This document shows positions 4,576 through 23,291 of a stretch of DNA of 64,000 nt, in pieces. Below the pieces are notes generated by a model, which saw nothing but the letters and a program-made list of their open reading frames with translations, was not told the DNA's origin and searched no databases. The DNA comes from Candidatus Aldehydirespirator sp. (GTDB taxonomy: Bacteria; Actinomycetota; Acidimicrobiia; Acidimicrobiales; Aldehydirespiratoraceae). The position numbers and the translations under genes were made by a program. The stretch is from the NCBI GenBank assembly GCA_965221185.1, contig OZ244866.1, positions 1,289,992-1,353,991 of the forward strand, given 5' to 3'. Numbering within the stretch: position 1 is the stretch's first letter; every line of letters begins with the position of its first letter.

Positions 4576-4595
4576 CTGTGGCGGCTCTTCGGATT

Positions 4596-4727: not shown

Positions 4728-4729
4728 TG

Positions 4730-5170
4730 TTATCTGGGGGGCTGGACGCTGTGGTGGTTCGGAGCTTGGGTTTCATGTGGGAGACATGTCGCTGACGGGG
4801 CGGGGATGCGGCTTTGGCGCCGGTGGCCGAGGTGCTGGGCGAGGTGTTCTCGGAGTTGGTGGTTGTCGGCCTTGAGCCTGGTGATCTCGTCGAGGGCGGC
4901 CTCGAGGCGTTGTCGCAGCGATTCGGCTGATCCTCGTTCAGGTGATGGAACGGGGACAGCCTGGGCTGTGGCAACTCGGCGGAGCCGGTCGATGTCGGCT
5001 CGCAGATCGGGCTGGCGGTAGAGCCAGGACCGGGACACGCCTGCTGTGCGGGCGACGTGTGCGAACGTGATCGGTTGCGCGGTGGCGTGGAGGCGCTGTA
5101 GCGCTTCGGTGGCGCGTTGGCGGGTCTGGTCGGAGCGTTGTCGGGCGGCAGCGGCGAGGGCGGCGGTCAC
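4730..5170 (-). CDS. small TnpC-like / DUF6262-like protein
   Basis: GTG 5170 overlaps the stop of the upstream recombinase (GTGA). The product is VTAALAAAARQRSDQTRQRATEALQRLHATAQPITFAHVARTAGVSRSWLYRQPDLRADIDRLR...LEAALDEITRLKADNHQLREHL, an HTH followed by a coiled coil. This is typical of third genes in two-recombinase transposons. Confidence 0.55.
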   Translation of the reverse strand: MTAALAAAARQRSDQTRQRATEALQRLHATAQPITFAHVARTAGVSRSWLYRQPDLRADIDRLRRVATAQAVPVPSPERGSAESLRQRLEAALDEITRLKADNHQLREHLAQHLGHRRQSRIPAPSATCLPHETQAPNHHSVQPPR

Positions 5171-7119: not shown

Positions 7120-8183
7120 GAGACGCCGTCCCAGGCGCCCGCACGCACCAGCTCGGACCGCAGGTCCTCGACATCGAGGTGCACATACGCTTCGCTGGTC
7201 GTGGTCACCGACCGGTGCGTCAACAGCTTGGACACGACCTCGATCGGCACACCGGCGCGGATCAGCTCGGTGGCGCGGCTGTGGCGCAGCGTGTGCGGGG
7301 TGAACTCGATGCCCGTGCGGGCTCGCAGCCGCCGCACCAGCTTCGCGACCGTGTCATAGCGCAGCGGCCTGCCCACCGGCGCCGACCACAGGTTCACGAA
7401 CACGTAGTCAGAGTCCAGCTCGCCGTACTCGGTGTGCATGTAATCGCTGTAGAGCCGCACCAGCGGCGCCGACACCGGCACCGTCGCCGGCGACGAGCAC
7501 TTGGCCCGGGCCCCATTCGCGTTGTCGGCCCGGGCCACGATGCGCACCTGCCGCCGGCGGCTCACGAAGTCCTCGTGTCGCAAACCAAGCGCCTGGCCGA
7601 CCCGCATGCCCGTCTCGGCCAACAAGGCGAACAAGAACCGGTCCCGCAGCCGGGTGCACGCCGCCAAGATCACAGCGACCTCCTCGACGCCGAGCACAGC
7701 CGGCAGCCGCCGCGGCACACGCAGCCCCACCGGCCGCGTGCGAACCGGCCCGTCACTCGCGATGCCGTGCAAGAACGGCTTGTAGGAACCCCGAGACCCG
7801 CGCCGCCACGCCACCAACTCCGCCGCCACGCCCACGCCGCCGCTGCGAGCGTGGAAGTCGTAGAACCCAAACAGCGCGGCCAGGTGACGGTTCACCGTCG
7901 CCGCGCTGCGAACCGCCGCCGTGTCATCGAACACGATCACGTTGTCGGCCGGAGCCCGCAGCCATGCCACGAACCGCGAGACATCCTCGATCCCAACGCT
8001 GTCCCAGACCAGGCGACGGGCCCCGAGGAACTCAAACCAAAGCCGCAGACCGTGCGCGTAGGCCCTCACCGTGTTCGGTGAACGCTCGATGCCTGCCAGG
8101 TGCGCCAGGTAGCGCTCCACCGGCTCCACCAGAGCCCATTCGTCGTCGACGACCGTCCAAGACTCGGCGCCGGTCACCGGCAT
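7113..8183 (-). CDS. tyrosine recombinase, TnpA-like (357 aa)
   Basis: The start was chosen at ATG 8183 (MPVTGAESWTVVDDEW...), because upstream track-ORF residues lie in ISL3 DNA. It has a SAM-like N-domain (RSPNTVRAYAHGLRLWFEFL) and catalytic HTLRHSRATELIRAGVPIEVVSKLLTHRSVTTTSEAYVHL. Confidence 0.8.
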   Translation of the reverse strand: MPVTGAESWTVVDDEWALVEPVERYLAHLAGIERSPNTVRAYAHGLRLWFEFLGARRLVWDSVGIEDVSRFVAWLRAPADNVIVFDDTAAVRSAATVNRHLAALFGFYDFHARSGGVGVAAELVAWRRGSRGSYKPFLHGIASDGPVRTRPVGLRVPRRLPAVLGVEEVAVILAACTRLRDRFLFALLAETGMRVGQALGLRHEDFVSRRRQVRIVARADNANGARAKCSSPATVPVSAPLVRLYSDYMHTEYGELDSDYVFVNLWSAPVGRPLRYDTVAKLVRRLRARTGIEFTPHTLRHSRATELIRAGVPIEVVSKLLTHRSVTTTSEAYVHLDVEDLRSELVRAGAWDGVSC

Positions 8184-8382
8184 CACCACACGCTGAACCC
8201 TCACAGGCCACCTCCACCGCATCTCGACCGGCGACCGCAGGCCGAAGGAAGCGCTGTCTAGCTCACGCCGCCAGCAACATCGCGGACTCCAACGACACGA
8301 TCCAGAGAACGCGTCCACCACCGCCCGCCACATGCCCATCAGCGACATCGACGACACCCCCCGACACGCTCCAGAGAATGGT

Positions 8383-9570
8383 GGCCTCGGTGGCTGCGTT
8401 GGTGACCCTGGCGGCGTGCCAGTTGGCGATCTGGTGTCTCCAGTTCGAGATGGTGCGTCCCAGCCTGTTGATCTCGGGGGGCATGGCGGGGTCTTGGAGG
8501 TCTTGGGCGAGTTGGTTGACGGTGGCGGCGCCCAGGTCGGCGTCATCGATGTCATAGATGCCGCGCAGGGTCTCTTTGGCGTGCCATGCGTCTTTGACCT
8601 CGCCGTAGGGGTCTCCGGCTGCGAGCAGGCCGCGCAGGCGGGTGTCGCCTGATTCGGTGACGCGTTCGTGCGCGGCGACGAGCAGCTTGCGGGCGCGGTA
8701 CAGCGGGTCGTGCTTGTGACCGCGATGGCCCAGGGTCTGGTTCTGGACTCGGCGGCGGACCTCGTCGAGGGCGTCGTTGCCCAATCTCACGACGTGGAAC
8801 GGGTCCGCGACCTGCTTCGCGGCGGGCAGCGCGGTGTCGAACGCGGCCCGATACGGGCCCGAGAGGTCCAACACCGCCCAGCGCACCGCTGCCAGCCAGC
8901 TCTGTGGTCGCCGCAGCAGCCAGCGCGCAGGCCCATCAGCGGTGCGGCCTGGGACCACGTCGAGAAGCTGGCCCCGCGCGACGTCGACGATGCTGGTGCT
9001 CCAGGCCCGCTGAGCGAAGCGGCCCCGGCGACAGAACAGGGTCTCATCGAGGCCCAGCGCCACCACCGCGGCGATCCTGTCGGCATCCGCGTCCAATAGG
9101 GCCTGACCCCAGCGCCTCACCGACGCGTTGACGGTGTGCCAGTCACAGCCCAGCACCGCCGCGGTGTCCGCTATCGCTTCGCCACGACCGGCGCGGCGAG
9201 TCGCCCAACGGCCAGCGCGGGCAGTCAACAGCGCCCGCTGCGGCGCGATGGCAGGGTCCTGCTCACTGAACGAGCCCGCCGCGCACCCCGAGCGCGGGCA
9301 TCGCCAGCGGCGCTTGTGCCACACCAGCCGCACCGGCCGCCCGAACGCCGGCAGGTCTACCATTTCGACGCCGCGTTCGCCCTTGGACCACACCGGCCCG
9401 CCACAGCCCCCACAGCACGGCCGACGCTGTCGACACCGGATGTGCACCCGCAACGGCCCTCCAGCGGCATCATCGACGCCGAGCACCTCCACGTCGCCTA
9501 GTCCCACCAGCAACTCGCAGACGCGCGTAGGGTCACACTCCACAGGGATCCTCCCGATTCGGCTGTCCAA
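8383..9570 (-). pseudogene. ISL3 transposase, 5' piece (396 codons)
   Basis: The track ORF 8263..9570 reads like an ISL3 transposase: a zinc-ribbon region (CGGCGGPVWSKGE...WRCPRSGC), then DETLF..., ...DPFHVVRL, ...NWHAARVTNAATEA. After codon 8385-8383 the sequence becomes unrelated (TILWSVSGG...). Confidence 0.8.
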
Positions 9571-10129
9571 GCAGCGCCGATTCTGGGGGATCCCTCGCGT
9601 TCAGCCGCGGACCCTCACACCCCCTACTGCCCCCTCATTTCCGAAGAGCCACTTTGGTTTCGTATCGGATGAGGTCCGGGCGGCGTCGGGGCCATTTGCA
9701 TGCCCGATGCAGAGGCACTGGGAGCACAAGGATCCCGAGTTAGTGGCCGATTGTGTGCAGGAATCGGTTTGCGTCGCGTTCCGAAACGAGACGAACGGAG
9801 GAATCACTTGTGTCGCAACTGGTTCCTAGGCGACGAGCCCATCCACCGACGACGCTCAATCGCATCTTGGGCCCAGTCATTGTGGCGGGAGGAGGCCCTC
9901 CACGATTGCCCATCGGATGAGTGGGCGACGGCCATCCCATAGGGTGCCCTTCGCCCGTCGGTGGCTGAGTGTCGAGGAGACGAAGTGTGGACTGCAACAG
10001 GGAGCGGATCCGGCCGGAGGGCAACCCGGATCGTGCTCAGGGAAGTCGGGCACTGGCACAGCTCAACTCGCCGACCTCAGCCAAACGATGGTAAGCCGGG
10101 TCGTCTGTCATTCCTAGTCGCCCCAATTC

Positions 10130-10783
10130 CTAGCTGATTGCCCTGACCTCGCTCTTGAGGCGCTTCACAGCTACAGGGGAGACGCCCAGATTGTGAACGA
10201 GCGTGGCCGCCGCGCCGCCGCCATAGAGTGCAACTGCGAGGGCTACGACGCACGATGGAGCGCTGCTGGCGTCGAGTGGGATTGCTGGCGTACTGCTTGG
10301 CAGCCACGCAGGGGTGGATGGGTGCTGTTGTCCTCCGTTCTGCTCGAAACTCGACGCGAGTTGCACGTGCCAGTAGTCGTGCCTTCCGCCCTCGCCCTCC
10401 GGAGACTCGAAGCGAAATCCAACGGATCTCAGTGGCTCATTCCGTTCTTCTTCTACAAAGACCAGCAGCAAGAGTCGAAATACTTCGAGAGTCTCGTTAG
10501 CTACAACCGAGAGATAGGGCAAGATGGGGTTTCCCTTAACAGCAGGCTTGAGTGGGATGAATGTGCTGGCGTTGTTCTCCTCAAAGAGATTCACGGGTGA
10601 CTTTCCGAATCTATCTTGGAGCTTTTGTCTCTTGGCGTCGTAGGGAATGGGAGTCCAGCCGTCCTTCTCCAAACGGGCTCGGAGCCGGGTGCGGACGGTT
10701 AACTCCTTTTGTGTCCCGTCCTTCTCGCCGTCTTCGGCAAGTTTGAGTAGGAGTTGCCCGATCAGGTGTCCATCGGACGACAT
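10130..10783 (-). CDS. hypothetical protein (217 aa), third gene of the GHKL-kinase/REC operon
   Basis: Clean ORF. ATG 10783 lies 3 nt after the TAG of the upstream gene. I recognise no motif (MSSDGHLIGQLLLKLAEDGEKDG...GGRHDYWHVQLASSF...). The DNA is visibly more A/T-rich than the window average. Confidence 0.6.
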   Translation of the reverse strand: MSSDGHLIGQLLLKLAEDGEKDGTQKELTVRTRLRARLEKDGWTPIPYDAKRQKLQDRFGKSPVNLFEENNASTFIPLKPAVKGNPILPYLSVVANETLEVFRLLLLVFVEEERNEPLRSVGFRFESPEGEGGRHDYWHVQLASSFEQNGGQQHPSTPAWLPSSTPAIPLDASSAPSCVVALAVALYGGGAAATLVHNLGVSPVAVKRLKSEVRAIS

Positions 10784-10786
10784 CGA

Positions 10787-11776
10787 CTATTCGGCCAACA
10801 GGGTTCTCGGAGACCGTACGACGCGAGTGGGATCACACGGTTCCCATTCCACGCCGTTAGCCTCAGCGCGTTCTCTCTCATCCCGAAGCAGGCTCGTGAC
10901 TGGTGGCTCTTCGGTTGCAAGCACGAATCTGACGTCCTGCATGGACGGAACTTGGGATGCGAATGCTAGGGCCGCGTCTCTCTCGATGAATCGAGAGAGA
11001 TCCTCAAGGAACACCACTGGCGGAGGGTCGTGCCCCCAAGGGTCACTCACCTCCGGGATGCCTGGGTTCTTGCTGACACTTGACCACGACCAGAGGGCAC
11101 GGTCGCTCCAGGGACCCAAGTCAATCATCGAGTCGGAAACGCGTGTGAAGTCGAGGCCGATCTCGGTGAGTTCAGACGTGAGCTTGGCCGTCCTATTCCA
11201 GCCTGCAATGTCATTCTCTCTCGTTACCAGGCTTGAGAAACGCGAAACGAGATGAGGCGCATCGATGAAGGGCTCTTGTGCAGGAAGCACAAGACTCTTC
11301 AGCCATCGGCTGATGCGGGCCGCACCCACTCGAGGAATCTGCGAGTCATCGAGAGAGTCCTTTGGCCGTATCCCTAAGGTACTCCCAGACGTGACAGCCT
11401 CACGAAACGTAACTGCTTGCAGTTTCTCCAGAGAGCCCTTGTTCACGAGGGCCTCAACCGCTCGCTGTGAGAGCCAATCGCCAAGGTCGTTGAGTTTGAG
11501 AGTCTCAAGCACCGGCTCGTCTAGGCGCTCTCTGACAATCTCAACCCGAGCATGGAAGGATGCGACCTCGCGCGGCAAGATGGGCCATGCCCAAGGCCGG
11601 TACCCGATGAAGTTGTCGCTCCACAAACCAGGGTTACCGAGGTGCGTCGACGATATTCGTAGATCCGCAAAGTGGTCTATAGGTGTTTCCAAGCGAAGTT
11701 CGAAGGTGGGACTCCCGACGACTTCCCCTTCATTCATGACCACAATCAGCCCACACGGTGAGTAGCAGCGGACTAG
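10787..11776 (-). pseudogene. REC-effector gene, 3' part (rest of the receiver domain plus unknown ~300-aa domain), separated from its 5' part by an IS
   Basis: This is the lower part of the chimeric 592-aa track ORF. It reads L-VRCYSPCGLIVVMNEGEVVGSPTFELRLE... through to ...SPRTLLAE*. It shares its frame with 13675..13974 once 1898 bp are removed (see findings). Confidence 0.7.
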
Positions 11777-11812
11777 GAGACTGTTGAGTAATTCGGTCCG
11801 GGGTGCTCGCGT

Positions 11813-13501
11813 TTGTGGTGGTGGGGTGGGAGAATGGGGGTCATGCAGGGAACTGAGGGACCGGATCGGGTGCTGTTGGACGCGTTGGGCCTGTGTGGGG
11901 GTCTGGTGCGTGAGGGGTCGCTGTATCGGTTCTTGGCCGAGAACCGGCTGCGGCTGTTCCCTGATGAGATGTTCGCGGATCTCTTCGGGCCTCGGGGCCG
12001 GCCGTCGGTGCCGGGTTCGGTGGTGGCGACGGTGATGGTCCTGCAGGCCTTGGAGGGGTGCTCTGACCGTGAGGCGGCCGAGCGGCTGCGGTGTGATCTG
12101 CGCTGGAAGGCCGCGGCGGGTCTGGCCGTGGACGATGAGGGGTTCCACTACAGCGTGCTGGCGCTGTGGCGCCAGCGGCTGCGCGCGAGCGGGCGCCCGG
12201 AGCGGGTCTTCGACGCGGTGCGCGAGCTGGCCGCGGCCTGCGGGGCGCTGTCGAAGAGCCGCCGCCGGGCGCTTGACTCCACGGTGCTGTTTGACGCGGT
12301 GGCGACCCAGGACACCTACACGATGATCGCGGCTGCGATCAGGCGCTGCCGCCGACTCATCGGCGAGGCCGCTGATCTGGAGCTGATGCGCGACTACCGC
12401 GTTGGGGCCAAGCCGTCGTGTGTGTGGTCTGATCGCGATGAGCGGGCCTGGCTCGTCGACGAGTTGGTCACCGACGCCCAGGCGGTTCTCAAAGCAGTGG
12501 AGGGCCTCGAGCTCACAGGCGAACAAGCCGACGCGGCGGCGCTCTTGGCCGCGGTGGCCGGCCAAGACGTCGAGCCGGACCCGAAGGTGCCGGGACGCTG
12601 GCGCATCGCGCGCCGCGTCGCTGAGGGCCGCATCATCTCAACAGCAGACCCCGAGGCCCGCCACGCCCGCAAGACCCGCTCTGTGCGCCGCGACGGCTAC
12701 AAGGCCCACATCGTCGCAGAGCCCGAAACCGGCATCATCACCGCCGCAGAACTCACCCCAGCAGACGCCTCAGACGCCAAAGTCGGCGCCCGGCTCCTCA
12801 CCACCGACACCACCGCCACCACCGCCACCGACGACACCGCCACCGACGACACCGACGACGACACCGACACCGACGACGACACCGACACCACCGACACCGA
12901 CACCGACGACACCGACACCACCGACACCGACGACGGCGCCGAGCCTGGGGGCAGGCTGGTGCTGGCGGACTCCGCGTACGCGTCGGGCGAGGCGCTCGAG
13001 GCCTTCACCGGCGCCGGATGGGACACCGCGATCAAGCCCATCGAACCCACCGCGCGCATCGCCGGGGGCTTGACCCGAGACGACTTCGACATCGACGCCG
13101 GCGCACAGACCGTGACCTGCCCCGCAGGACACACCAGGCCCGTCACCTCGGGCGCGGCGCGCTTCGGCAAGCTGTGCGCGGCGTGCCCGCTGCGGGCGCG
13201 CTGCACCACCTCTGAGCGGGGTCGCAGCGTCACCGTCGACGCCCACCACGCCCACCGCGAGGCCAACAGGGGCCGCTGGAGGCGCGCCGGCACCCAGGCC
13301 GCGTACCGCCGGCACCGGCCCATGGCCGAGCGAAGCATCGCCTGGCTCACCCGAGGCAAAGCCAGACGCGTCCCCTACCGCGGCGTCGCCGCCAACAACC
13401 TCTGGCTCACCACCAGAGCCGCCGCAGTCAACCTCGCGCGTCTCACCAACCTCGGCCTCACCCACAACGGAACCGGATTCGCCCTGCCAACCCCCGCCTG
13501 A
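11813..13501 (+). CDS. IS1182-family DDE transposase
   Basis: Track ORF 562 aa with an InsH-like N-terminus (LYRFLAENRLRLFPDEMFADLF...PSVPGSVVATVMVLQALEGCSDREAAERLRCDLRWK). It also has ALDSTVLFDAV, DGYKAHIV, LADSAYASGEA and a C-terminal Cys cluster (CPAGH...CAACPLRARC). It contains an unusual T/D-rich insert. Confidence 0.85.
   Translation: MWWWGGRMGVMQGTEGPDRVLLDALGLCGGLVREGSLYRFLAENRLRLFPDEMFADLFGPRGRPSVPGSVVATVMVLQALEGCSDREAAERLRCDLRWKAAAGLAVDDEGFHYSVLALWRQRLRASGRPERVFDAVRELAAACGALSKSRRRALDSTVLFDAVATQDTYTMIAAAIRRCRRLIGEAADLELMRDYRVGAKPSCVWSDRDERAWLVDELVTDAQAVLKAVEGLELTGEQADAAALLAAVAGQDVEPDPKVPGRWRIARRVAEGRIISTADPEARHARKTRSVRRDGYKAHIVAEPETGIITAAELTPADASDAKVGARLLTTDTTATTATDDTATDDTDDDTDTDDDTDTTDTDTDDTDTTDTDDGAEPGGRLVLADSAYASGEALEAFTGAGWDTAIKPIEPTARIAGGLTRDDFDIDAGAQTVTCPAGHTRPVTSGAARFGKLCAACPLRARCTTSERGRSVTVDAHHAHREANRGRWRRAGTQAAYRRHRPMAERSIAWLTRGKARRVPYRGVAANNLWLTTRAAAVNLARLTNLGLTHNGTGFALPTPA
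12799..12933 (+). repeat. imperfect ACC/GAC hexanucleotide-type microsatellite inside the transposase gene
   Basis: caccaccgacaccaccgccaccaccgccaccgacgacaccgccaccgacgacaccgacgacgacaccgacaccgacgacgacaccgacaccaccgacaccgacaccgacgacaccgacaccaccgacaccgacgac encodes TTDTTATTATDDTATDDTDDDTDTDDDTDTTDTDTDDTDTTDTDD. Confidence 0.9.
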
Positions 13502-13674
13502 CACCCCCACCGGAGCCCGACTCGCCCCGCCAACCCCCGCCTGACACCCCCACCGCAACCCGACCCTGCCCAACGCGCACACCCCGCACCAAAAGGAACC
13601 CGGCAGCCAACACCGCGCAGCCACACGACCGCCACACCGCGGCCGGCAACCCCACTTGCTCAACAGTCTCCTAG

Positions 13675-13974
13675 GTAGGCAAGTTCCTGTCCCGTGGTGT
13701 AGCTGTTCGTAGCCACGTCGAGCAAGTCGTAGTCGAGAAAGACGATGTCGGCTTCGTCGAAGAAGATGGAGCGATCATCCATCGAAGGCGTGCCCGGCTC
13801 TCGTAGGGTTCGTTGCCTCCGGGTGAGCACCTCCAGCGCGGTGCTCAGTTCAGCTGGCGACGGTGCCTTTACCTCGGCGTCTTCTCCGAGGAGGTCTCTA
13901 ATGACGCTTGCCCACTCGGAAGCTGCGTCGATGTCGTCGTCGCAGACGACGATCTTGAGTTTCTCCTGGCTCAC
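13675..13974 (-). pseudogene. REC-effector gene, 5' part (first ~100 codons of a receiver-like domain)
   Basis: GTG 13974 overlaps the kinase stop (GTGA) and has AAGGAG 5 nt upstream. The product is VSQEKLKIVVCDDDIDAASEWASVIRDLLG...ADIVFLDYDLLDVATNSYTTGQELAY. It has an acidic DDD after beta1 and an LDYD phospho-acceptor-like Asp. The track ORF then ends 3 codons into the IS inverted repeat (L-GDC*). Confidence 0.7.
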
Positions 13975-16241
13975 AAACTCTCCTTCCATTGCAGTTTCAC
14001 GGCAGTGGCAAACGGTGGGTCGGGTTCGGCGAACCGAACATCCGCGTTGGCGTCGTTGGCAATCATCCTGACGATCGTGAGGCCTAGCCCTGTCCCGCCT
14101 GCAGCGAGGGCACGACGCGATGCAGGAATCTCAAGATGCCTCGTGAAGGGTTCGAACAGGGACTCAGCCTTTGCAAAATCGACGCCGACTCCCGTGTCCT
14201 GAATGCGGACGACGCTTCGGTTACCATGAGCGGAATAGTCCACCGCGATGCGCCCCGGTTCGCCCTTTGCGATGATGGCATTTGCGGCGTTCACGAAGAG
14301 ATTCTGAAAGAGTGCAATCCAGCCGGCGTACATGCCCCGAGGGAGACGAGCCACGTCAGGAATGGCTGAGAACTCCAACGGGATGCCGCGTGTCAGATAG
14401 CGGGCTCCCTCACCGGCATCGCGCAAGACACTCACAAGCTTGTACCGCGACGTTTCGCCGTGTGGTTCCGCCTCCGAGAGGTGCCTCACCAGTGAACGGA
14501 TTCCACGCGCACGGATGACCCACTGGTCGATGTCGGCGGCGATCTGTTCTAGCTCGGCCGAGGCTTGCGGAGACTCTGTTGCTATTCGGCGGAGCCTCTT
14601 GGCAATACGCTCCACCCCGGCAATCTGTTTCGATACCTCATGGTCATATACAAGCGTCACGCTCCCGGCGGACGCGAAGGCTGCAAGCTGACTAGCAAGA
14701 TCCTGCTGCAGTTGCGCTTGCCGCCGCGCATCCTGGACCGCGCCACCAATGGCCACCTCTAGTTCTGAGTAGGCCTCCGGCGGTATTTCAGCTTCGTAGT
14801 GCGCCAAAATCTCAAGTGCCGAATCGACGGCTTCGCTTGGCGACTGGACATCCCGTAATCGCGATATGTCTTCGAAGCGATGCCTTGCCTGCTCGGTTGC
14901 GTAGTGCTCAAGTGCCCGGACGACGACGTATCGCAGTTGCTCGAACGCTCGGTTCCGCACGAGGCGATCACGCGAGACCTGCAGTTGGAGGTGGTCCGAG
15001 TATTCAGCGGCACCGACAGACGGATCCGAGCGGCGCGCGGCCCTTCTTTCTCTGGACGTGTCAACGTGCACAGCGCCGAAGACCCGAGAGTTGGTCGGTA
15101 GATACGTCGCAGCCGCGCTCACACGCAGCGCGGGGGGAAGCCACCTAGTAGTGTCGAGACGATGTGAGTGAGCAATCTCCAGTCCCAGCCAGTCGGCCTC
15201 CGGGCCGGAGAATGGAATGCGAAAGCCCCCGTCATACACGTGGACTCCCCCATGTTCTTGGAGGTAGTCGCGAGCTTCCTTAACCTTGATGCCGAAGCGC
15301 TGTTTGTTTCTCAGGTCGAAGATACGGATCTCGAACTGGCAACCGTCTATGAGAGACTCGCTTCCCAAGTCAATACCCGTCTCGCCGGAGAGTCGGCTCG
15401 CCTCTTCGGTGCTGGGAGGCAGGTCGTACTCCTCTCTGGATGTCCGACTGCCCTGGAACTCGATCACAAGACGGGTCAAACTGCGTCGAGGTTCTTCGCC
15501 AACAGTCGTCACCACGCCCTGAATTCGAGCCATCCAGAGGTCAAGAACACGTCGAAGCTGAGTCTCGAAGGCCTCTTGGGCTGGTCGGTCGGCTTCCAAG
15601 CGCACGTCGAACGAATCCTCGGGCTTGGCTTGTCGGACCAATGCGTCTGAGAAGGGTGGCCGAAGAAACCAGATCTCGCGTGCGAGCTTCTCGAAGTCAG
15701 TGCGCTCCCATGTCTGATTCAGGCCTTCAATCGAGATGGTGGTTCCCGAAGGCGACCCGCCGGGATAGCTAGCTGTGGGTGCCCCCATCTCGTAGAGCGC
15801 GGTTGCACTTGTCAGATCGCCGGCCTGAACCGCGTCCCTCCAGTCGACCGTTGCGGTGAGTTGCTCCAGAGGCTTGCTCGCCGAAGTAGTGCGCATCTCA
15901 AGTCGATTCCCAAGGAACTGGACTGCAAGACGCCCTACGCCCTTCGACCCCGTGAGGGGGCGTCGCAGGCCGCGAGAGAACTCCTCTCCGGCCTTGTGCT
16001 GCGAGCCGACGCGCATCCAGCGGTCCCGGAATTCCCCGTAGTCCATACCGTGACCGTCGTCTAAGACGTCGATCCGGTCCTCCTCGAACTTGATGTCGAC
16101 ATGGCTCGCGTCGGCGTCGTAACTGTTCTTTATGAGCTCTGCCAAGGCGATGTACGGAGCTCCTACTAACCTCTCACCGAGCTCCTGGAGCAGCGCCGAG
16201 TCGACACTGAAGCGCTCGCGATACTTACTAGCCACGGTCAT
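13971..16241 (-). CDS. hybrid ATPase: N-terminal MORC/HSP90-type GHKL domain plus C-terminal histidine-kinase core (DHp H-box and HATPase_c)
   Basis: The start was chosen at ATG 16241 (MTVASKYRERFSVDS...). The N-terminal Bergerat motifs are LAELIKNSYDADA, VLDDGHGM and TGSKGVGRLA. The H-box-like motif is LVYDHEVSKQIAGVERI. The C-terminal kinase ATPase motifs are LFQNLFVNAANAI (N box), IQDTGVGV (G1), FEPF (F) and GGTGLGLTIV (G2). Confidence 0.75.
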   Translation of the reverse strand: MTVASKYRERFSVDSALLQELGERLVGAPYIALAELIKNSYDADASHVDIKFEEDRIDVLDDGHGMDYGEFRDRWMRVGSQHKAGEEFSRGLRRPLTGSKGVGRLAVQFLGNRLEMRTTSASKPLEQLTATVDWRDAVQAGDLTSATALYEMGAPTASYPGGSPSGTTISIEGLNQTWERTDFEKLAREIWFLRPPFSDALVRQAKPEDSFDVRLEADRPAQEAFETQLRRVLDLWMARIQGVVTTVGEEPRRSLTRLVIEFQGSRTSREEYDLPPSTEEASRLSGETGIDLGSESLIDGCQFEIRIFDLRNKQRFGIKVKEARDYLQEHGGVHVYDGGFRIPFSGPEADWLGLEIAHSHRLDTTRWLPPALRVSAAATYLPTNSRVFGAVHVDTSRERRAARRSDPSVGAAEYSDHLQLQVSRDRLVRNRAFEQLRYVVVRALEHYATEQARHRFEDISRLRDVQSPSEAVDSALEILAHYEAEIPPEAYSELEVAIGGAVQDARRQAQLQQDLASQLAAFASAGSVTLVYDHEVSKQIAGVERIAKRLRRIATESPQASAELEQIAADIDQWVIRARGIRSLVRHLSEAEPHGETSRYKLVSVLRDAGEGARYLTRGIPLEFSAIPDVARLPRGMYAGWIALFQNLFVNAANAIIAKGEPGRIAVDYSAHGNRSVVRIQDTGVGVDFAKAESLFEPFTRHLEIPASRRALAAGGTGLGLTIVRMIANDANADVRFAEPDPPFATAVKLQWKESL

Positions 16242-16401: not shown

Positions 16402-17169
16402 TCAGATCAGCCTCGGCAAGGACGTCGAAGTTCCGATCTCGCGATAGATGTCTAGAACTTGCTCCACCACCTGGATACCGGGACCGCGAACCAGGACGCC
16501 GAGTTCGAGATTGTGTCCGGCGAGGCCCGCTCGTGTGATGTTCGCGCTGCCGATGTAGGCGACCGACGCGTCGGCCGTCAGGACCTTCAGGTGTGCCCAC
16601 GGTGCATCAGAACGGAATCGCGACATCCGGAGATGATCGATGGATCCGTCACGGATGATCGCTTTCTCAAGATCGTCAAGTGCGTCGTTGGCATCAGGGG
16701 AGCGAGTAGGCAGCAAGATCTCAAGTATCACCCCTCGCGCAGTTGCCGTCGCAAGGGGTTCGCAGAGAAACGATAGCCCTGGGCGGTTGATGAACGGGGT
16801 GGCGAGCCTCAGAGTTGTTGTGGCCTCAACGACGAGTTGGACCATGGTCTCGCCGGTTGTTCGGTTGAGGCCAGAGGGCAGGTCCGTTCCCGCGGGCAGG
16901 GACGCGACCAGGTCCCATGGTTCTTGCGCAGTTACGGATCTTCGTCCGAGGACCCATGCCGCTCCCTGTTGACACGCGGTGACGACTCGGTCCGGGTCGT
17001 CGCCGAGGCGGGCACACAGAACCTCTACTAGTTCGGGGGCTAAGCCGGCTTGAGCAGCTGCGCCGGGATCGGGTCGGGGCGCGAGTAGCAGGCCGGTTAG
17101 TTGGTCCGCAGCGTCGCGGGGGTCGGGTGCGGCGTCGAGGACTCCGCCGACTAGCTCGGCGTCGTCCAT
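16402..17169 (-). CDS. drmC: phospholipase-D/Nuc-family nuclease, DrmC-like
   Basis: It has a single HKD motif, HLKVLTADASVAYIGSANITRAGL. The start is ATG 17169, 1 nt after the DrmB-like stop. The symbol is tentative. Confidence 0.7.
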   Translation of the reverse strand: MDDAELVGGVLDAAPDPRDAADQLTGLLLAPRPDPGAAAQAGLAPELVEVLCARLGDDPDRVVTACQQGAAWVLGRRSVTAQEPWDLVASLPAGTDLPSGLNRTTGETMVQLVVEATTTLRLATPFINRPGLSFLCEPLATATARGVILEILLPTRSPDANDALDDLEKAIIRDGSIDHLRMSRFRSDAPWAHLKVLTADASVAYIGSANITRAGLAGHNLELGVLVRGPGIQVVEQVLDIYREIGTSTSLPRLI

Positions 17170-17170
17170 A

Positions 17171-18874
17171 TCAGGTGTGCTCCTTGAGGAATCCCTGTGG
17201 CCCGAAGATTTCTGAGCGGTCAAGAAAGCGGTTGAACCAGCGGCAGGACGGTTCGCCGAGGTGGAGGCAAGCCATGCATGCGCCGCCGCCGCTTCTGCAC
17301 CCCGGATCGAGTGCGCATCGCGACTCGCCCTCGACTAGGTCTTGGAGGAACCGATGCAGGTTTGTCTCGAAGACTGCTTGAAGGCCGCCGAGCACGAAGT
17401 TGCCGCGCGATGCTGCGTAGATGACGAAGGCGAGATGGTGGGGGAGGAGGTACTCAGCTAGTCCATCTCGTTCGATTCCGGCGAATGATGCCAAGCGGCG
17501 GACGGTTCGGTGTGCATAGGAGTGGACGAGCGTTAGCAGATCACCGCCGAGCGCTTGGGGGTCCTCCTGGGCGGGATGGGGGATTCCGATGCGCTCGAGC
17601 AGCGCCAGTCGCGCGCCCTGCTGGTCGTCTACCTCTGGCAGTCGGTGCCCTGCTTGCTTGAGGTGTTGGTAGACGTGCAGGGGGTCAAGACGGAAGAGCA
17701 GTGCCTCTGTGCGCGTCAGCGATCCGTAGGCGCGGAGTCCGCCGCGCTCACGGAACGGGACAAGCCGCGCCGCGCCCGGCGCTAGATCACCACGGGTGTA
17801 GGCGAAGGCGAGGGTCGCGACGGGGAAGTTGTCGAGCAACTCCACGTCCGCAAGGTGTGCACGGCGCATTGCGTCGTGGTAGGCCCCCTCATACAGGGTG
17901 CGCAGCGGCGGTGTCGTCCCGTCCACCATGTCGCTGACGCGTGTGCGGCCGCCACGCACTGCTGAGGCGAGACTCAAGGCCTCCTCGTGCGCCTTCTCGC
18001 GAACGGAGTCGGGGAGTCCCATGTCGGCGGTGCCGTCTCCGGCTTCTGCCTCGCCCTTGTCGACCGCGGTTTGAGCGAGGTCGCGTGCGGCTGGGTCGGA
18101 CAGGCCTGACCGTCGAAGGGTGTCCATGAGGCCCGCGAACGTCTGTCTTCCTGACGCCGGGTCGTCGGCATCCATCCCGTTGAGTATCCACTCAAGGGCT
18201 CGCGCTCCTCCTCCAGCGGCGCGCAGATGGGCGGCATCGGAAGGATCGGGCGGGTTGACGAGCACTGCGAAGCGGGGAGAGAAGACAACCGCTGCCCGAT
18301 GCACCGTCAGGTTCTTCCCGCCGTTGCCGCAGGAGCATGGCTGGAACGGGAATCCTCCCGATGTCAAGCTTGTCCGGCATTGAGGGCAGAAGAAGCGAAG
18401 CTCTCGTGCAGTCGCTGTGCCGGGCAGCCGGACGGCGACAGCGTTGTGCGTGCGGCAGCGCGGCAGCATCGGAGCCCCCGATGCGCCGCAGTCGTGATAG
18501 GTGACGAACTGCATCTGGGCTCGAGAGCGTCCATCGCAGGAGCATCGCTCTTCGCGCTTGGAGGCGATGCTTCCACACTTCTTGCAGCGCCACTGCTGGG
18601 GGAACGGCTCCACGAGGACACCGCGGTCCATGTTGAGGCTGACGACCTCCACGGTCGCACGGGCATGCAGATTGCGTCCTAGCTCATCGTCCTGCCCCGT
18701 CGCTATCCACGGCGCGATGGCGTGCAGTAGAGCGGCGCGCACCGCATCTTGGTCGAGTGGAATAGGCACCGGGTCGAGCCAGCGCATGACCCTCCAGATG
18801 CGGCCTTCGAGATCAGCGGTCTGACCGGGAAGCATGCCGAAGAGGACCTGCGAGGCTCCGCGCTCGACTCTCAC
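17171..18874 (-). CDS. drmB: DUF1998 (MrfA-type zinc-ribbon) protein, DrmB-like
   Basis: GTG 18874 shares one nt with the TAG of the helicase gene. There are internal Cys clusters (WRCKKCGS...CSCDG, FFCPQCRT...CSCGNGG). The terminal DUF1998-like motif is CRSGGGACMACLHLGEPSCRWFNRFLDRS. The symbol is tentative. Confidence 0.7.
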   Translation of the reverse strand: MRVERGASQVLFGMLPGQTADLEGRIWRVMRWLDPVPIPLDQDAVRAALLHAIAPWIATGQDDELGRNLHARATVEVVSLNMDRGVLVEPFPQQWRCKKCGSIASKREERCSCDGRSRAQMQFVTYHDCGASGAPMLPRCRTHNAVAVRLPGTATARELRFFCPQCRTSLTSGGFPFQPCSCGNGGKNLTVHRAAVVFSPRFAVLVNPPDPSDAAHLRAAGGGARALEWILNGMDADDPASGRQTFAGLMDTLRRSGLSDPAARDLAQTAVDKGEAEAGDGTADMGLPDSVREKAHEEALSLASAVRGGRTRVSDMVDGTTPPLRTLYEGAYHDAMRRAHLADVELLDNFPVATLAFAYTRGDLAPGAARLVPFRERGGLRAYGSLTRTEALLFRLDPLHVYQHLKQAGHRLPEVDDQQGARLALLERIGIPHPAQEDPQALGGDLLTLVHSYAHRTVRRLASFAGIERDGLAEYLLPHHLAFVIYAASRGNFVLGGLQAVFETNLHRFLQDLVEGESRCALDPGCRSGGGACMACLHLGEPSCRWFNRFLDRSEIFGPQGFLKEHT

Positions 18875-21800
18875 TACCTGCTTCCCCTTGTGATCACCGG
18901 TGCTTGCTCTTCGACGTCTCGCAGCGAGCGCATCGGCGTGCCGGTTGAGAACAACTCGCTGACCCAAGTTGCGGTGCTGGCCGGGTCGTTGAGCGCCCGG
19001 TAGAACTCTCGCAGATACGCGGTGATGTCGTTGCGCAGATTCTCGTCGAGCGGTCCGTCGAAGCCGAGCATATCGATCAAGGCCTCAAGCTCTCTGGATT
19101 CGTGCACTGGCAGCTTCGCGAAGGCGCGCTTGACCGTCGCGGGCGTCGTCAGTTGGGTCAGTTCAGCTGCGAGTGCGGCTGGTTCGTGGATGCCGTATAA
19201 GCGGGCCTGAACTAGACCCGCGAAGGTCAACTCGAGGACGCGGCGGCTCTTTGCGGTGATGGGCACGGGGTCGATGAGGCGATCGGCGTGGGCGACGAAG
19301 GACGGGAAGGTTCGGTACACGGCCGCATCGCGCTCTCGCCCGATCTTGTGCAGCACGATGACAAGGCCCGGGTGGGATCGCCCGACCCGCGAGGTCGTCT
19401 GGATGAACTCCGCGGTCGCGAGGGGCAGACCGAGCATGACGAGCACGTTGAGGCGGGTCACGTCGACGCCGTGCGACAGCATCGAGGAGGCCGCGACGAG
19501 ATGGATGCGCTCGTAGAAGTCCTGCTCGGGGTCGACTAGGCGAGCCAGGGTCGTGCGTACCTCGTCCAGCGGGGTGCGGCCAGTGAGGGTCGCGGCGTTG
19601 ACCGGCTGGTCCAGCTGGATCTGTGAGTCGAAGGACCTTGCGACGGCTTCGACGTCCTTGAGGTTGGAGCCGTAGACGACATCGACGCCGTAGTTGAGCA
19701 CCAGTTCGGGGAGGGCTGCGACGTCGATGCCAATGTCGTCTGCCACTGTCGCGGGGTCTTCGACAGCTCGCCGGATCACGCGTTGGAGCGACTCGGTCAA
19801 CTGGTCGGTGGCGTATTCCAGAGTCACACCACGTGGCGCTAGTCCCGCGAACCGGCGGGCCAGAGCCTCCGTGTCTTGTGACCAGAAGGACCTGCCCGCC
19901 TGCGGTCCGGGACGGGGGAATGTTCGGCCCTCGCGTTGGTAGAGGGCGGCGACCTGCTCGTCGTGTCCTGCCAGTGTCGCCGACGACGCGATGATCTTTG
20001 GCGCCGAGCCGTAGTGGTACTGCAAAGTGTCGAGGAGTGCTTCGTAGTGGGAGTCGACGGCGCCGAGGCTGTCACGCAAGAGGTGGAGTTCGTCTTGCAT
20101 GCGGATCGTGGGCGCGTACAGGTGGGAGTCCTGGTTAAGGGGCGCCGACTCCGCTCGGCAGCCGGGGAAGAGGCAGCCTCCGGGCGACGCGTGGCGGGGG
20201 GCGTAGGTGAAGCCGTGCCTTCGGACCGAGCAGCGACCAGAGGGCGTGCCGTAGAGGCCGCGCATCGCTGCCTGCATTGAGACGCTTGCAGCCTTGTCGA
20301 TGGTCCCGAGGACGACGGTCGGCAGTGAGCGATAGATCTCATCGTCGACGATGCGGAACGGGAGCTGAACCCCTTCCTGCGGGCAGTTCTGATCAGTGCA
20401 GACGTGATCTAGAGCCCAGCGCTCCTGGTCAAAACGCATCTGGAGATCATCGTTGCCGCAGAAGGGGCAGCGCAGCAGCACTTTGTAGCGCTCCGGCATG
20501 TGGGGATCGCTGGGGTCGGGGTCGCCTGGGCGTTGGTCCGTCCCTCGCCTGATCTTGTTGGGCGTACCGGCGGACCCCACGAGGAATCCCAGGGAGAACT
20601 CGCGTCCAGGGATCTCCTCATCGCGGCGTGTGAGCTCCGCGGCGGCGAGGACATCGGCGAAGCGCTGGGTCTGTTGCAGCGAGAGCATGCGGAGCGGGAA
20701 CCGCCCCCAGGACGTGACGCCCTCTCGCTTGCCCCGCAGCCGATCGAAGAAGGCGGCTGTGAGGACGTACAGCAGATAGGTCTCGGTCTTTCCGCCTCCG
20801 GTTGCGAACCACAAGGTGTCGACGATGCCGCGATCTCCGTCAGAGGTGTCATCGAGCAGGGATGCGACGTTGGCGAGCAGGAAGCCGAGTTGGAACGGCC
20901 GCCATTGAGCGTGCGACATGAGGGGTGACCGAGCGAAGGCTCTGTTGGCCAGCTTGAAACTGCGGCGAAGGCTCTCGTTGGCCTCTAGAAGGTTCAATCC
21001 GCGTTGAAGCCGCGCAAGTTCCTCGTAGAACTTCGCTGCCTCGGCGCAAGCCTCGCTCCGCATGCCGTCGTCCCAGTCCTCCTCGTCGCCGCGGCGAGTG
21101 AGGACTACCGGTGCCCAGTGATCAGCCCCCCACCTCTCGCAAGCGGTGACAAGGTCGCGAAGAGTGGGGATGGGGTCTGCCGCGAGGTTGGTGAAGGTGA
21201 TGTCGGGAGGAGGACCGAGGTCGTCGTCCCAGTATGTGGGCCTGGGTTGGTCGCATACGGCGACATCAGTGGTGCAGAAGGTCGTCTCGTTGACCTGCTC
21301 GACGCTGCCGTTCACTCCGTAGGCGCTGACCCTGCGGTCGTAGCGGAACGAGTCCGGAAGGTTGTCAAGCGTGAAGGGCAGCGTCTCGCCGGCGTCGACG
21401 ACGAGGCTTGCCTCGTAGACGTTCGTGTCCCATCGCGGTAGCTCCTCCGGGGAGAGGTTCACCAGCGTGACGACGAGTTCGTGGCCGTCCTTGCCGGTCT
21501 CAAGTTCGGCGTGGAATTCACAGATAATGCCGTCGGCGCCGACAGCTCCTAGCGCGTCAGCGAAGTCGTCGCGACCTGCGGACTCGATGGCGCCTGTGGA
21601 GCGGGGCGTTGGGAGATCGGCCGCCACCTCGATGGGGCCGCGCTTGCGCCGCTTCGGCGAGTCTGCTTCGCCGTTGCTGTCGATCTCATGCCAAACGACG
21701 AAGCGGGCAGTGCATCGCACTGTGCGGCCGTCGAACTCGCTCAGACGCAGGCGCAATCCAGTCTCGCATGGCTCAAGGCGTTCGCTGCGTTCCCCGAGGC

Positions 21801-21963
21801 GGCTCTGTTGTACGACGATTTCGGGAGCGAGGCGACCCAGCCACAGCCTTCCAGCCGGCGCCACTGCCAGCTCGTGCACGCGGTCGCCGCGTGCGTCAGC
21901 GACGACCTCCTCGAGCATCCAAGCGACGAAGGCCTCCGCATCGGCGGAACGGAGTGGGGCCAC
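18874..21963 (-). CDS. drmA: superfamily-2 DExH helicase, DrmA-like (1029 aa)
   Basis: Motif I is WFATGGGKTETYLL, motif II is MQDELHLL, and motif VI-like is IQTTSRVGRSHPG. There is a long N-terminal region of unknown function. GTG 21963 lies 2 nt after the MTase stop. The symbol is tentative. Confidence 0.75.
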   Translation of the reverse strand: MAPLRSADAEAFVAWMLEEVVADARGDRVHELAVAPAGRLWLGRLAPEIVVQQSRLGERSERLEPCETGLRLRLSEFDGRTVRCTARFVVWHEIDSNGEADSPKRRKRGPIEVAADLPTPRSTGAIESAGRDDFADALGAVGADGIICEFHAELETGKDGHELVVTLVNLSPEELPRWDTNVYEASLVVDAGETLPFTLDNLPDSFRYDRRVSAYGVNGSVEQVNETTFCTTDVAVCDQPRPTYWDDDLGPPPDITFTNLAADPIPTLRDLVTACERWGADHWAPVVLTRRGDEEDWDDGMRSEACAEAAKFYEELARLQRGLNLLEANESLRRSFKLANRAFARSPLMSHAQWRPFQLGFLLANVASLLDDTSDGDRGIVDTLWFATGGGKTETYLLYVLTAAFFDRLRGKREGVTSWGRFPLRMLSLQQTQRFADVLAAAELTRRDEEIPGREFSLGFLVGSAGTPNKIRRGTDQRPGDPDPSDPHMPERYKVLLRCPFCGNDDLQMRFDQERWALDHVCTDQNCPQEGVQLPFRIVDDEIYRSLPTVVLGTIDKAASVSMQAAMRGLYGTPSGRCSVRRHGFTYAPRHASPGGCLFPGCRAESAPLNQDSHLYAPTIRMQDELHLLRDSLGAVDSHYEALLDTLQYHYGSAPKIIASSATLAGHDEQVAALYQREGRTFPRPGPQAGRSFWSQDTEALARRFAGLAPRGVTLEYATDQLTESLQRVIRRAVEDPATVADDIGIDVAALPELVLNYGVDVVYGSNLKDVEAVARSFDSQIQLDQPVNAATLTGRTPLDEVRTTLARLVDPEQDFYERIHLVAASSMLSHGVDVTRLNVLVMLGLPLATAEFIQTTSRVGRSHPGLVIVLHKIGRERDAAVYRTFPSFVAHADRLIDPVPITAKSRRVLELTFAGLVQARLYGIHEPAALAAELTQLTTPATVKRAFAKLPVHESRELEALIDMLGFDGPLDENLRNDITAYLREFYRALNDPASTATWVSELFSTGTPMRSLRDVEEQAPVITRGSR

Positions 21964-21965
21964 CG

Positions 21966-23291
21966 TTAACTCGCCGAATCGCCGATGAGCGCGAGCGGCG
22001 CTACAGACTCGCGCGCCGTCAAATCAACCAGTCGGGTCTCTTCGACAGCACAGTCGGGAAGCGCGCCGAGCAGCGGCGCCAGCAGATGCACGACGAAAAG
22101 AGGCGGCACTGCGTTGCCGATCACTCTTGCCCAAACGCCTCGACCCTTGCGAGTGTCGAGGTCGAAGAAATCAGGCAGCGTCTGCAGGCGTGCAGCCTCA
22201 TGGGGCGTAAGCGTGCGAGGGTGCTCCGGATGCACGAACCTGCCCTGGCCCATGCACCCGAACCCGGTCGTGATCGTCTGTGCGGGCGCATCCCACGCCA
22301 GCCGCCCGTACATCGAGTTGTAGCTGTGCGAGCCGTGATGGCACTCGGGGCGCCTCTCGTTCGGAAGGTCGTACTTGTCCTGACCGATGAGCCACTGCAT
22401 CCGCTTAAGGTTGACGGGCGTCGATCTTGAGGCAGAGTCGGGCCCCGTCTTCGCTGTCTGATCGACGAGATCCTCGATTGCCCAACGCACGGACCGTTCG
22501 GCGTGGTCATCACACGCCGAACCTAAGCATCCCATGACGGACGGGTCGATTCGGTCTTCGATCGCCGCCAGAAGGATGTGGCGTCGGCGCCTCTGAGGCA
22601 CACCGAACTTCACAAGGTGAAGCACGTCGCTAGCGACCGAGTACCCGGCGGCCTTGAGGGCTTGAGTCGAGCGGTCCACGACACCGCCCCTGTCATGTCG
22701 CACTGTGGGGACGTTCTCGATGACTACGAGAACTGGCCGGAACACCTCTGCGGCGCGCACCGCCCGCAAGTACAGAGCGTTGCGGGGGTCCTGTCGCCGG
22801 GTGCGGTTGTTGAGGTCCGAATGCCCCTGACATGGTGGCCCAGCCACAAGAACGTCGACCTCACCTACCGCACGGGCAATGCTCCTCTCCGACGCTGTGC
22901 CCGGGGTTCCCAACTCACCGTCGAACAATGCCTCGACGCTGGCGCGCACCAGGTTCGCATGCGGGAAGTTGAGCCCGTAGACATCTGCAGCATGACCGTC
23001 GTTCTCGATTGCGAGAGCGACCTCCGTTCCACGTCCCAGCCGATGCGCTGCTTCCGCGACCCCAACCGTGAGACCACCGCCGCCAGCAAAGAGGTCAACT
23101 AGCTGGAATGGACTTGGCGAGCCCTCATAGTCGGGGCGATTCTTCGAAACCAGGAATTCGCGATCGACATCGCACCGATCACAGGACCTCGGATGCTCGG
23201 CCGCAGCGCTTCGTGGCTGTCCCCGGTGGGAGTTGCGGGAGACGGCGGACACGTCAGACGCTCGTTCGCGCAGGTTGGCCGGAGAGATCAC
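21966..23291 (-). CDS. DNA (cytosine-5)-methyltransferase, DrmMII-like
   Basis: All the classic C5-MTase motifs are present: DLFAGGGG (I), AGPPCQGHS (IV), VIENV (VI), QRRRR (VIII) and GNAVPP (X). The ~60-aa N-terminal extension means the start codon is uncertain. Confidence 0.85.
   Translation of the reverse strand: MISPANLRERASDVSAVSRNSHRGQPRSAAAEHPRSCDRCDVDREFLVSKNRPDYEGSPSPFQLVDLFAGGGGLTVGVAEAAHRLGRGTEVALAIENDGHAADVYGLNFPHANLVRASVEALFDGELGTPGTASERSIARAVGEVDVLVAGPPCQGHSDLNNRTRRQDPRNALYLRAVRAAEVFRPVLVVIENVPTVRHDRGGVVDRSTQALKAAGYSVASDVLHLVKFGVPQRRRRHILLAAIEDRIDPSVMGCLGSACDDHAERSVRWAIEDLVDQTAKTGPDSASRSTPVNLKRMQWLIGQDKYDLPNERRPECHHGSHSYNSMYGRLAWDAPAQTITTGFGCMGQGRFVHPEHPRTLTPHEAARLQTLPDFFDLDTRKGRGVWARVIGNAVPPLFVVHLLAPLLGALPDCAVEETRLVDLTARESVAPLALIGDSAS

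Follow-up and report, generated by a model that had tools for sequence, protein, structure and literature searches.

We analysed a 64,000-nucleotide (nt) stretch of DNA from Candidatus Aldehydirespirator sp. (Acidimicrobiia; contig OZ244866.1, positions 1,289,992 to 1,353,991 of the forward strand), hereafter the window. Its minus strand carries three tightly packed genes, G1, G2 and G3, together with an upstream block encoding a methylase and DrmA-, DrmB- and DrmC-like proteins. The trio is a mobile cassette that normally travels with a C5 cytosine methylase, not with DISARM, and the copy in the window has been inactivated by an insertion sequence (IS) in G2. G1 runs from an ATG at 16241 to a TGA at 13971 (13971..16241, minus strand) and encodes a soluble protein of 756 aa, which Pfam, NCBIfam and PDB profile matches identify as a paraMORC/MutL-type GHKL ATPase joined to a histidine-kinase core. 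G2 starts at a GTG at 13974 that overlaps the G1 stop codon (GTGA), with AAGGAG upstream, so that the two genes are translationally coupled; homologues of G2 begin at the equivalent MSQEKL. The IS leaves a G2 5' fragment (13671..13974, minus strand), which by sequence and reconstruction spans receiver elements β1 to α3 including D17/D18 and the putative phospho-acceptor D86. To the 3' fragment (10787..11776, minus strand), reconstruction and an AlphaFold2 (AF2) model assign the remainder of the receiver, with the invariant R108 and N120, and a C-terminal domain of ~300 aa (G2-C). G3 (10130..10783, minus strand; 217 aa), an obligate partner as judged by synteny and alignment, starts 3 nt past the G2 stop. 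Both gene junctions had been read in this way in an initial annotation made from the letters of the sequence.

The three proteins and the interrupted operon

Profile searches indicate that G1 is a MutL/MORC-type GHKL domain fused to a complete histidine-kinase core, as the initial annotation had proposed. Pfam places HATPase_c_3 at residues 31–137 (E 6.5e-21) and HATPase_c at residues 644–738 (E 1.4e-18). The first ~180 residues resemble the N-terminus of restriction enzymes of the BbrUII/HgiDII family (NCBIfam, E 3.6e-23), and the only PADLOC match within the trio, REase_II, also falls on the G1 N-terminus; the last ~220 residues align with many sensor kinases in NCBIfam. Against the PDB, the G1 profile matched kinase cores made of a dimerisation and histidine phosphotransfer (DHp) domain and a catalytic and ATP-binding (CA) domain (FixL fusions, ZraS, CpxA, HK853 and EnvZ; E 3e-17 to 1e-10), while its N-terminal part matched MutL/PMS2 (E 4e-8 to 4e-6). 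The H-box histidine, His534 (YDHEVSKQ), directly precedes an acidic residue, E535, upstream of the CA domain, and across 121 aligned sequences conservation is no lower than 98% for this histidine and for the Bergerat motifs of both ATPase domains. In a 41-sequence alignment (A5), which takes in plasmid homologues of only 22–25% identity, the invariant residues are E35, N39, D61, G63, G65, G98, K100, G101 and G103 in the N-terminal part and H534, N647, N651, D682, G684, G686, G716, G718 and G720 in the C-terminal part. No transmembrane-like segment was found in G1, and the Pfam scan gave no match to an S5 transducer domain. The architecture is a common one: homology searches returned 2,848 matches at E ≤ 0.001, and among those listed 120 of 120 carry one or both HATPase domains. 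Database records label G1 a 'signal transduction histidine kinase'.

The IS that interrupts G2 (11777..13670, plus strand; 1,894 bp) splits it inside codon 107, within the receiver domain. Its ends form ~20-nt inverted repeats (11773–11796 and 13651–13674), and a CTAG target duplication is present at 11773–11776 and 13671–13674. The transposase is a 562-aa DDE open reading frame (ORF; 11813–13501, plus strand), and the element was assigned as IS1182/IS5-like because this protein matches Pfam DDE_Tnp_1, DUF772 and DDE_Tnp_1_6. The window holds one copy of the IS. Removing it with one CTAG restores a 434-aa G2 frame, reading ...GQELAYLVRCYSPCGLIVVMNEG..., and uninterrupted alleles of 425–433 aa with 72–85% identity were found, in agreement with the interruption that the initial annotation had described. 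A second, independent knock-out occurs in a metagenome-assembled genome (MAG) of Poribacteria, L044, where the G1 homologue (4520–8016) is split by a different transposase gene (384-aa DDE, 5777–6931) on the opposite strand. As a separate observation, the DUF772 region at the N-terminus of the transposase in the window is separated from its DDE domain by a long low-complexity insert rich in Thr and Asp (…TTDTTATTATDDTATDDTDDDTDTDDDTDTTDTDTDDTDTTDTDD…), which is encoded by 9-nt-periodic repeats at 12775–12951.

At E ≤ 0.001, a search of 1.84 billion cluster representatives yields 733 members of the G2 family. G2 itself matched nothing in Pfam, PADLOC or NCBIfam, its profile found nothing credible among PDB sequences, and 49 relatives scanned against Pfam at E ≤ 10 gave scattered chance matches only. 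The AF2 model of the repaired protein, computed from a 49-sequence alignment, has a predicted local distance difference test score (pLDDT) of 91.8 and a predicted template modelling score (pTM) of 0.91. Foldseek matches of this model in the PDB are almost all receivers (DesR, NarL, Spo0A, MtrA, CheB and PorX), aligned over ~110–120 columns at root-mean-square deviations of 3.7–4.5 Å with weak E-values of 7.5e-4 to 4e-2, and matches in the BFVD viral structure library are likewise dominated by receiver domains. From a confident AF2 model and these weak Foldseek matches, the N-terminus of G2 is predicted to adopt a receiver fold, which bears out the receiver-like start noticed earlier. In the order of the strands, D17/D18 follow β1, D86 stands at the end of β3 and N120 at the end of β4. 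Across 155 diverse representatives, conservation reaches 96% for D17, 95% for D18, 98% for D86, 91% for D88 and 99% for R108. The initial annotation had pointed to an Asn in place of the β4 Thr/Ser and to the lack of a β5 Lys, and both are seen in the family alignment, where N120 at the β4 position is 96% conserved and no conserved Lys follows β5. It had suggested from this that the domain could act as a pseudo-receiver. We consider that unlikely because the acidic pocket D17/D18/D86 (95–98%) and the kinase histidine are conserved. A TOPRIM-like N-terminus (DxD, D86-Y-D88) was also considered and rejected; the structural matches listed are almost all receivers, with no TOPRIM protein.

For the ~300 C-terminal residues of G2, in which no motif had been recognised before, Foldseek likewise returned no significant match in the PDB or BFVD. 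Among the 155 representatives, R259 (97%), D277 (99%), H280 (98%), E363 (100%), D364 (98%), S366 (98%) and R388 (99%) are near-invariant, and in the alignment these polar residues look like an active site. G3 matched nothing in Pfam, PADLOC or NCBIfam; 32 relatives gave scattered chance matches only against Pfam at E ≤ 10, and a PDB profile search gave nothing credible. An AF2 model from 14 close homologues (pLDDT 38.6) yielded no usable fold. The G3 core reads G-F-R-F-E-x-P-E ... H-D-x-x-H-x-Q ... P-x-x-P, and R124, E126, H135, H139, Q141, P166 and G188 are invariant in an alignment of 32 diverse members. Profile scans of G2 and G3 detected no HNH or helix-turn-helix (HTH) domain. Both G2-C and G3 are conserved, and probably either catalytic or essential. 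Because G2-C has no structural relative in the PDB or the viral library and G2 and G3 match no profile, G2-C and G3 may each represent a new fold, of an effector or of a reader. Residues 178–196 of G3 form a conserved hydrophobic helix (CVVALAVALYGGGAAATLV, Kyte-Doolittle 2.02) that ends in a near-invariant Y-G and is not long enough to be clearly classed as transmembrane.

Distribution of the cassette and its link to cytosine methylases

To survey the loci, genes were mapped by tblastn in 54 species-representative GTDB genomes, and 4 IMG/VR viral contigs and several plasmids were added. The co-occurring trio singled out by the initial annotation is colinear and tightly packed in all 54 GTDB loci and likewise on the viral contigs and plasmids, and wherever the sequence of a locus extends far enough, G3 follows G2. 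Hosts include bacteria, among them Cellulomonas persica, and archaea, represented by a few MAGs. Plasmid copies occur on Mycolicibacterium arabiense pJCM18538 (dcm + G1 + G2 + G3) and on a Rubrivirga plasmid, and each of the 4 viral contigs carries the cassette with a methylase. The cassette is plentiful among sponge-associated and marine symbionts such as Poribacteria, Dehalococcoidia and Acidimicrobiia, and its occurrence in cultured actinobacteria (the Mycolicibacterium plasmid, C. persica) makes it experimentally accessible.

A C5 methylase lies directly upstream of the trio and co-oriented with it in 33 of the 54 loci and elsewhere within 8 kb in ~9 more, which amounts to about 42 of the 50 loci with adequate flanks (~84%). 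Several loci without a methylase adjoin other restriction-modification (R-M) or defence genes. Neighbours of the cassette outside the window include type I and type ISP R-M systems, HEPN proteins, AAA_15/21 ATPases, an AspBHI-like Mrr protein and AbiE, a defence setting of the kind that the initial annotation had expected. In a Victivallales MAG with no C5 methylase nearby (L051), a protein with AspBHI-N and Mrr_cat domains is encoded directly downstream of G3 (9126–10352, plus strand). AspBHI, the restriction enzyme that gives this N-terminal domain its name, is a 5-methylcytosine-dependent type IV enzyme.

In the window the methylase stands at the far end of the Drm block. It is a 441-aa C5 cytosine DNA methyltransferase (21966..23291, minus strand; Pfam DNA_methylase, E 2.9e-42) whose top PADLOC models are DruM2 (2e-101) and MTase_II, with DrmMII matching more weakly (6.5e-33). 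It is followed on the same strand by a DrmA-like helicase of 1029 aa (18874..21963; PADLOC DrmA, E 2.6e-105; Pfam Helicase_C), a DrmB-like protein of 598 aa (17171..18967; PADLOC DrmB, E 8.1e-25) and a DrmC-like PLD-family protein of 273 aa (16402..17223; PADLOC DrmC, E 6.2e-17; Pfam PLDc_2, E 7.6e-11). A gap of 160 nt separates the DrmC-like stop (16402) from the G1 start (16241). The initial annotation was right to place the operon at this distance downstream of the DrmC-like gene, on the same strand and in lower-GC DNA, within a defence island. The GC content of the trio is 0.58–0.60, and its GC at third codon positions (GC3) of 0.63–0.67 is the lowest of the region, compared with 0.66–0.79 for DrmABC, 0.71 for the methylase and 0.83–0.88 for flanking host genes. 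In pairwise identity, the window methylase is 45–50% identical to methylases found directly upstream of G1 elsewhere, and the corresponding G1 proteins are 42–44% identical. These values are compatible with the window methylase being the cassette's own, with DrmABC lying between them. It probably marks self DNA for the cassette, for the DrmABC core or for both.

The description of the trio as appended to a DISARM core did not hold in general: DrmABC accompanies it in only 3 of ~60 loci (the window, L001/L005 and L006), and the recurrent partner is the C5 methylase. L001/L005, also from Ca. Aldehydirespirator, has the two sets of genes convergent, and L006 (Acidimicrobiaceae SB0675_bin_25) has the order of the window; their G1 proteins are 86–88% identical to that of the window. 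The DISARM link is thus clade-specific, being confined to the window and its close Acidimicrobiia relatives. The block itself resembles Class 2 DISARM in having DrmA, DrmB and DrmC homologues with a C5 methylase directly upstream on the same strand. It differs in lacking a DrmE match, and in the other lineages examined the trio is not part of DISARM. PADLOC found no DrmE or DrmD among G1, G2, G3 and the neighbours scanned. Because the DISARM core here is without DrmE and DrmD, a functional tie between the trio and DrmABC is possible in this clade; such a tie cannot account for what the trio does in general. The cassette of this one clade, with DrmABC inside it, offers a natural experiment in how DISARM and R-M-like systems exchange modules. 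Between the trio and the convergent DrmC of L001 lies an ORF resembling Vsr, the very-short-patch repair endonuclease, with an apparently degraded C-terminus (12189–12677, plus strand), which fits with the association with C5 methylases.

Directly downstream of G3 in the window come genes for an ISL3 transposase and for two tyrosine recombinases of 650 and 480 aa arranged in tandem (5167–9570, minus strand). These adjoining genes suggest that the block of methylase, DrmABC and trio is carried by an integrative element; neither a tRNA nor an att site was found in the window to mark an island boundary.

Known systems and a proposed mechanism

The initial annotation had taken the module to be undescribed, and here it was mistaken. 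Bellieny-Rabelo, Pretorius & Moleleki (2021) described kinase-like proteins composed of HATPase_c_3, a DHp-like 'HEF_HK' domain and HATPase_c (PMC8011034). In that computational study, which covered 644 loci, 91.6% of these proteins were linked to a gene for a receiver-like 'Response_reg_2' protein. C5 methylases lie upstream, with frequent Vsr, and a two-component-like system tied to R-M and paraMORCs was proposed (PMC8011034). The window operon shares with this system the soluble, three-part architecture of G1, with a DHp histidine followed by an acidic residue. It also shares the overlapping receiver-like gene immediately downstream and the linked C5 methylase, with Vsr in relatives. An Enterobacter plasmid version shows homology along the entire length of G1 (23% identity, E 8e-30), and versions from Agrobacterium, Burkholderia and Campylobacter plasmids align across the whole of G1 at 22–25% identity. 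Three of those plasmid loci adjoin C5 methylases, two of them also with Vsr. Pfam HEF_HK (PF19191) gave no match to G1 at E ≤ 1, a weakly informative result, as four plasmid homologues also miss. Response_reg_2 (PF19192) matched neither G2 nor 49 relatives at E ≤ 10, and four plasmid-borne pairs of the published architecture miss it too, so that this negative is not decisive either.

The two systems differ in the partners of the kinase. In the published receiver-like family a β4 Thr and a β5 Lys are conserved (PMC8011034), whereas G2 has Asn for the Thr and is without the Lys. When the G2 profile was compared by hhalign with the partner proteins encoded on the Enterobacter, Agrobacterium and Burkholderia plasmids, no similarity was found. 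G3 is specific to the window family, and the proteobacterial plasmid loci are without it. By these comparisons, the kinase scaffold is shared with the published systems, and the G2 receiver-effector and G3 make up a distinct, new partner set.

A related system, Ambrosia of P. aeruginosa, has been validated against phage and consists of a methylase, a HATPase kinase, a receiver (REC) protein with a winged HTH (REC-wHTH), an HNH protein and an XRE protein (bioRxiv 10.1101/2025.09.30.679545). Its defence requires the receiver Asp, and its expression is induced by infection (10.1101/2025.09.30.679545). In Ambrosia as in the window cassette, one gene cluster unites a sensor kinase of the HATPase type with a receiver protein and a DNA methylase. 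They differ in that Ambrosia, by its description, has an N6-adenine methylase, an XRE regulator, a REC-wHTH output and a separate type IV HNH nuclease, while the window has a C5 methylase, a novel output domain of ~300 aa and G3, with no HTH or HNH detected. The ORFs on either side of the window operon include no evident XRE gene, although no search aimed at XRE was made. A system of HATPase and REC proteins has also been predicted by DefensePredictor and is unvalidated.

With prokaryotic MORC and paraMORC proteins G1 shares intact N-terminal Bergerat motifs I–III and the association with cytosine methylases, Vsr, superfamily II (SFII) helicases and HKD/PLD nucleases. Iyer et al. (2008; PMC2292703) assigned MORC and paraMORC ATPases to R-M operons that also encode SFII helicases, cytosine methylases, Vsr and HKD nucleases, and VcSduA is a validated GHKL-controlled nuclease defence of the Shedu type (PMC12137116). 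G1 is unlike both in that its second GHKL domain is part of a true histidine-kinase core and not a fused nuclease. The earlier view that the trio is not Detocs was upheld, since PADLOC found no Dtc match in G1, G2 or G3. The two are alike in their defence logic, with a kinase whose signal would go to a receiver–effector fusion; the differences are the GHKL/MORC sensor, the lack of a stand-alone receiver, the different effector domain and the methylase linkage. Detocs is a precedent for an abortive system that runs from kinase to receiver to effector (DtcA kinase, DtcB receiver buffer, DtcC receiver-PNP effector).

On the basis of synteny, methylase linkage, mobility and defence-gene neighbours, we read G1-G2-G3 as the core of a horizontally mobile, phosphorelay-gated, R-M-like defence cassette whose usual fourth member is a C5 methyltransferase, and we give this reading an even chance of being right. 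The methylase would mark host DNA. The N-terminal MutL/MORC-type GHKL domain of G1 could serve as an ATP-driven sensor or clamp for foreign or unmarked DNA, or for a cue of infection, and sensing would be coupled to the kinase core of the same polypeptide, leading to autophosphorylation of His534. The phosphoryl group would then pass from His534 to Asp86 of the atypical G2 receiver and free the activity of G2-C, a probable metal-dependent hydrolase or nuclease. Together with G3, which may be an obligate co-factor acting as a target or specificity subunit or as a regulator, this enzyme would bring about restriction or growth arrest. A more specific version is tentative, and we would sooner doubt it than rely on it. 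In that version a DNA clamp wired to a kinase converts the state of DNA into a His-to-Asp signal for a new-fold effector, G2-C with G3, so that the phosphorelay gates restriction itself and not transcription as in Ambrosia, and the module can be plugged into cores such as DrmABC.

Several observations weigh against the phosphorelay-gated cassette. The copy in the window is broken, and nothing can therefore be said on activity in this host. The receiver domain of G2 is recognised by no hidden Markov model library, an hhalign comparison of the G2 profile with CheY aligned β1 only, and the domain is without the canonical switch residues, having Asn for the β4 Thr/Ser and no β5 Lys. Neither for G2-C nor for G3 did the searches point to an enzyme fold, nuclease or otherwise (Foldseek against the PDB and BFVD for G2, Pfam and PDB profiles for G3). 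A C5 methylase is absent within 8 kb in ~9 adequately flanked loci, mostly from Poribacteria, so methylation-based self-protection is not universal. In Ambrosia, moreover, the methylase gave phage DNA no protection, and the two-component pair acts on transcription (10.1101/2025.09.30.679545).

This last point leads to the main rival, in which G1 and G2 are not effectors themselves and regulate the transcription of neighbouring restriction genes (the methylase, DrmABC and G3). Its precedents are the infection-induced expression and receiver Asp requirement of Ambrosia (10.1101/2025.09.30.679545) and the regulation of R-M systems also proposed by Bellieny-Rabelo et al. (PMC8011034); in addition, G2 residues 172–271 are largely helical in the AF2 model and could hide a DNA-binding element. 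We nevertheless regard such control as unlikely, because Pfam, NCBIfam and Foldseek detected no HTH or wHTH in G2 and because most loci consist of the methylase and trio alone, with no separate nuclease besides G3 to be regulated; the near-invariant D/H/E/D/S/R residues of G2-C are also typical of a catalytic site. Less probable again is the association favoured in the initial annotation, with the trio as an accessory of DISARM that stands in for, for example, a missing DrmE or DrmD and works through DrmABC. The window, L006 and L001/L005 all keep DrmABC and a C5 methylase by the trio, in colinear and convergent arrangements, no DrmE or DrmD was matched among the scanned genes, and in R-M operons MORC genes are known companions of genes for SFII helicases and HKD nucleases (PMC2292703). 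These loci are close relatives, however, and the only 3 of their kind among ~60; in over 50 loci, plasmids and viral contigs among them, the trio has only a methylase beside it or stands by itself, and the GC3 of the trio is below that of DrmA and DrmB.

An abortive-infection or toxin module, in which G1 activates G2 or G3 to harm the nucleic acids, nucleotides or membrane of the host cell and the methylase is incidental or has another role, seems improbable to much the same degree. It would accommodate the loci without a methylase, the conserved hydrophobic helix of G3 and the two independent IS knock-outs, which fit a costly or toxic system, and Detocs, described above, would be its precedent. 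It sits less well with the ~84% of loci that have a C5 methylase nearby, mostly directly upstream and co-oriented. Nor does it fit easily with the comparable divergence of methylase and G1 in one sub-lineage (45–50% and 42–44% identity), or with a G1 N-terminus nearest to those of MutL and type II restriction enzymes. We give very little weight to an ordinary cytoplasmic two-component system with a housekeeping function and no defence role. The complete kinase core of G1 and its database label would suit one, but the spread of the trio is patchy across phyla and domains and takes in plasmids and viral contigs, its neighbours are R-M and defence genes with a tight linkage to DNA methylases, and no DNA-binding or other standard output domain was found.

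Were the phosphorelay-gated mechanism true, it would represent a second, post-translational coupling of two-component signalling to restriction-type immunity, and it would give a concrete output to the widespread, unexplained paraMORC ATPases of bacteria. For the window itself, the operon is a known kind of module that is dead here.

Other genes in the window

Beyond the recombinases lies an OLD-family/ABC-type ATPase gene (3253–4974, minus strand) that matches the PADLOC models AriAB (2.5e-17), AriA and GajA. This gene, at the edge of the same island, may belong to a defence system of the PARIS or Gabija kind. On the other side of the methylase, a 2,019-aa bacterial alpha-2-macroglobulin with MG2, bait region, A2M and bMG10 is encoded on the plus strand (25426–31485). 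The lowest-GC patch of the window (0.55) coincides with a gene for an 894-aa protein (40539–43223, minus strand) that combines a haem peroxidase domain of the animal type (E 9.6e-155) with an SLH domain at its C-terminus and that by its domain content appears to be a eukaryote-like enzyme anchored at the cell surface. A 359-aa protein encoded nearby (43624–44703, minus strand) has a SLOG cluster4 (LDcluster4) domain, a family often linked with the sensing of nucleotide signals in conflict systems.

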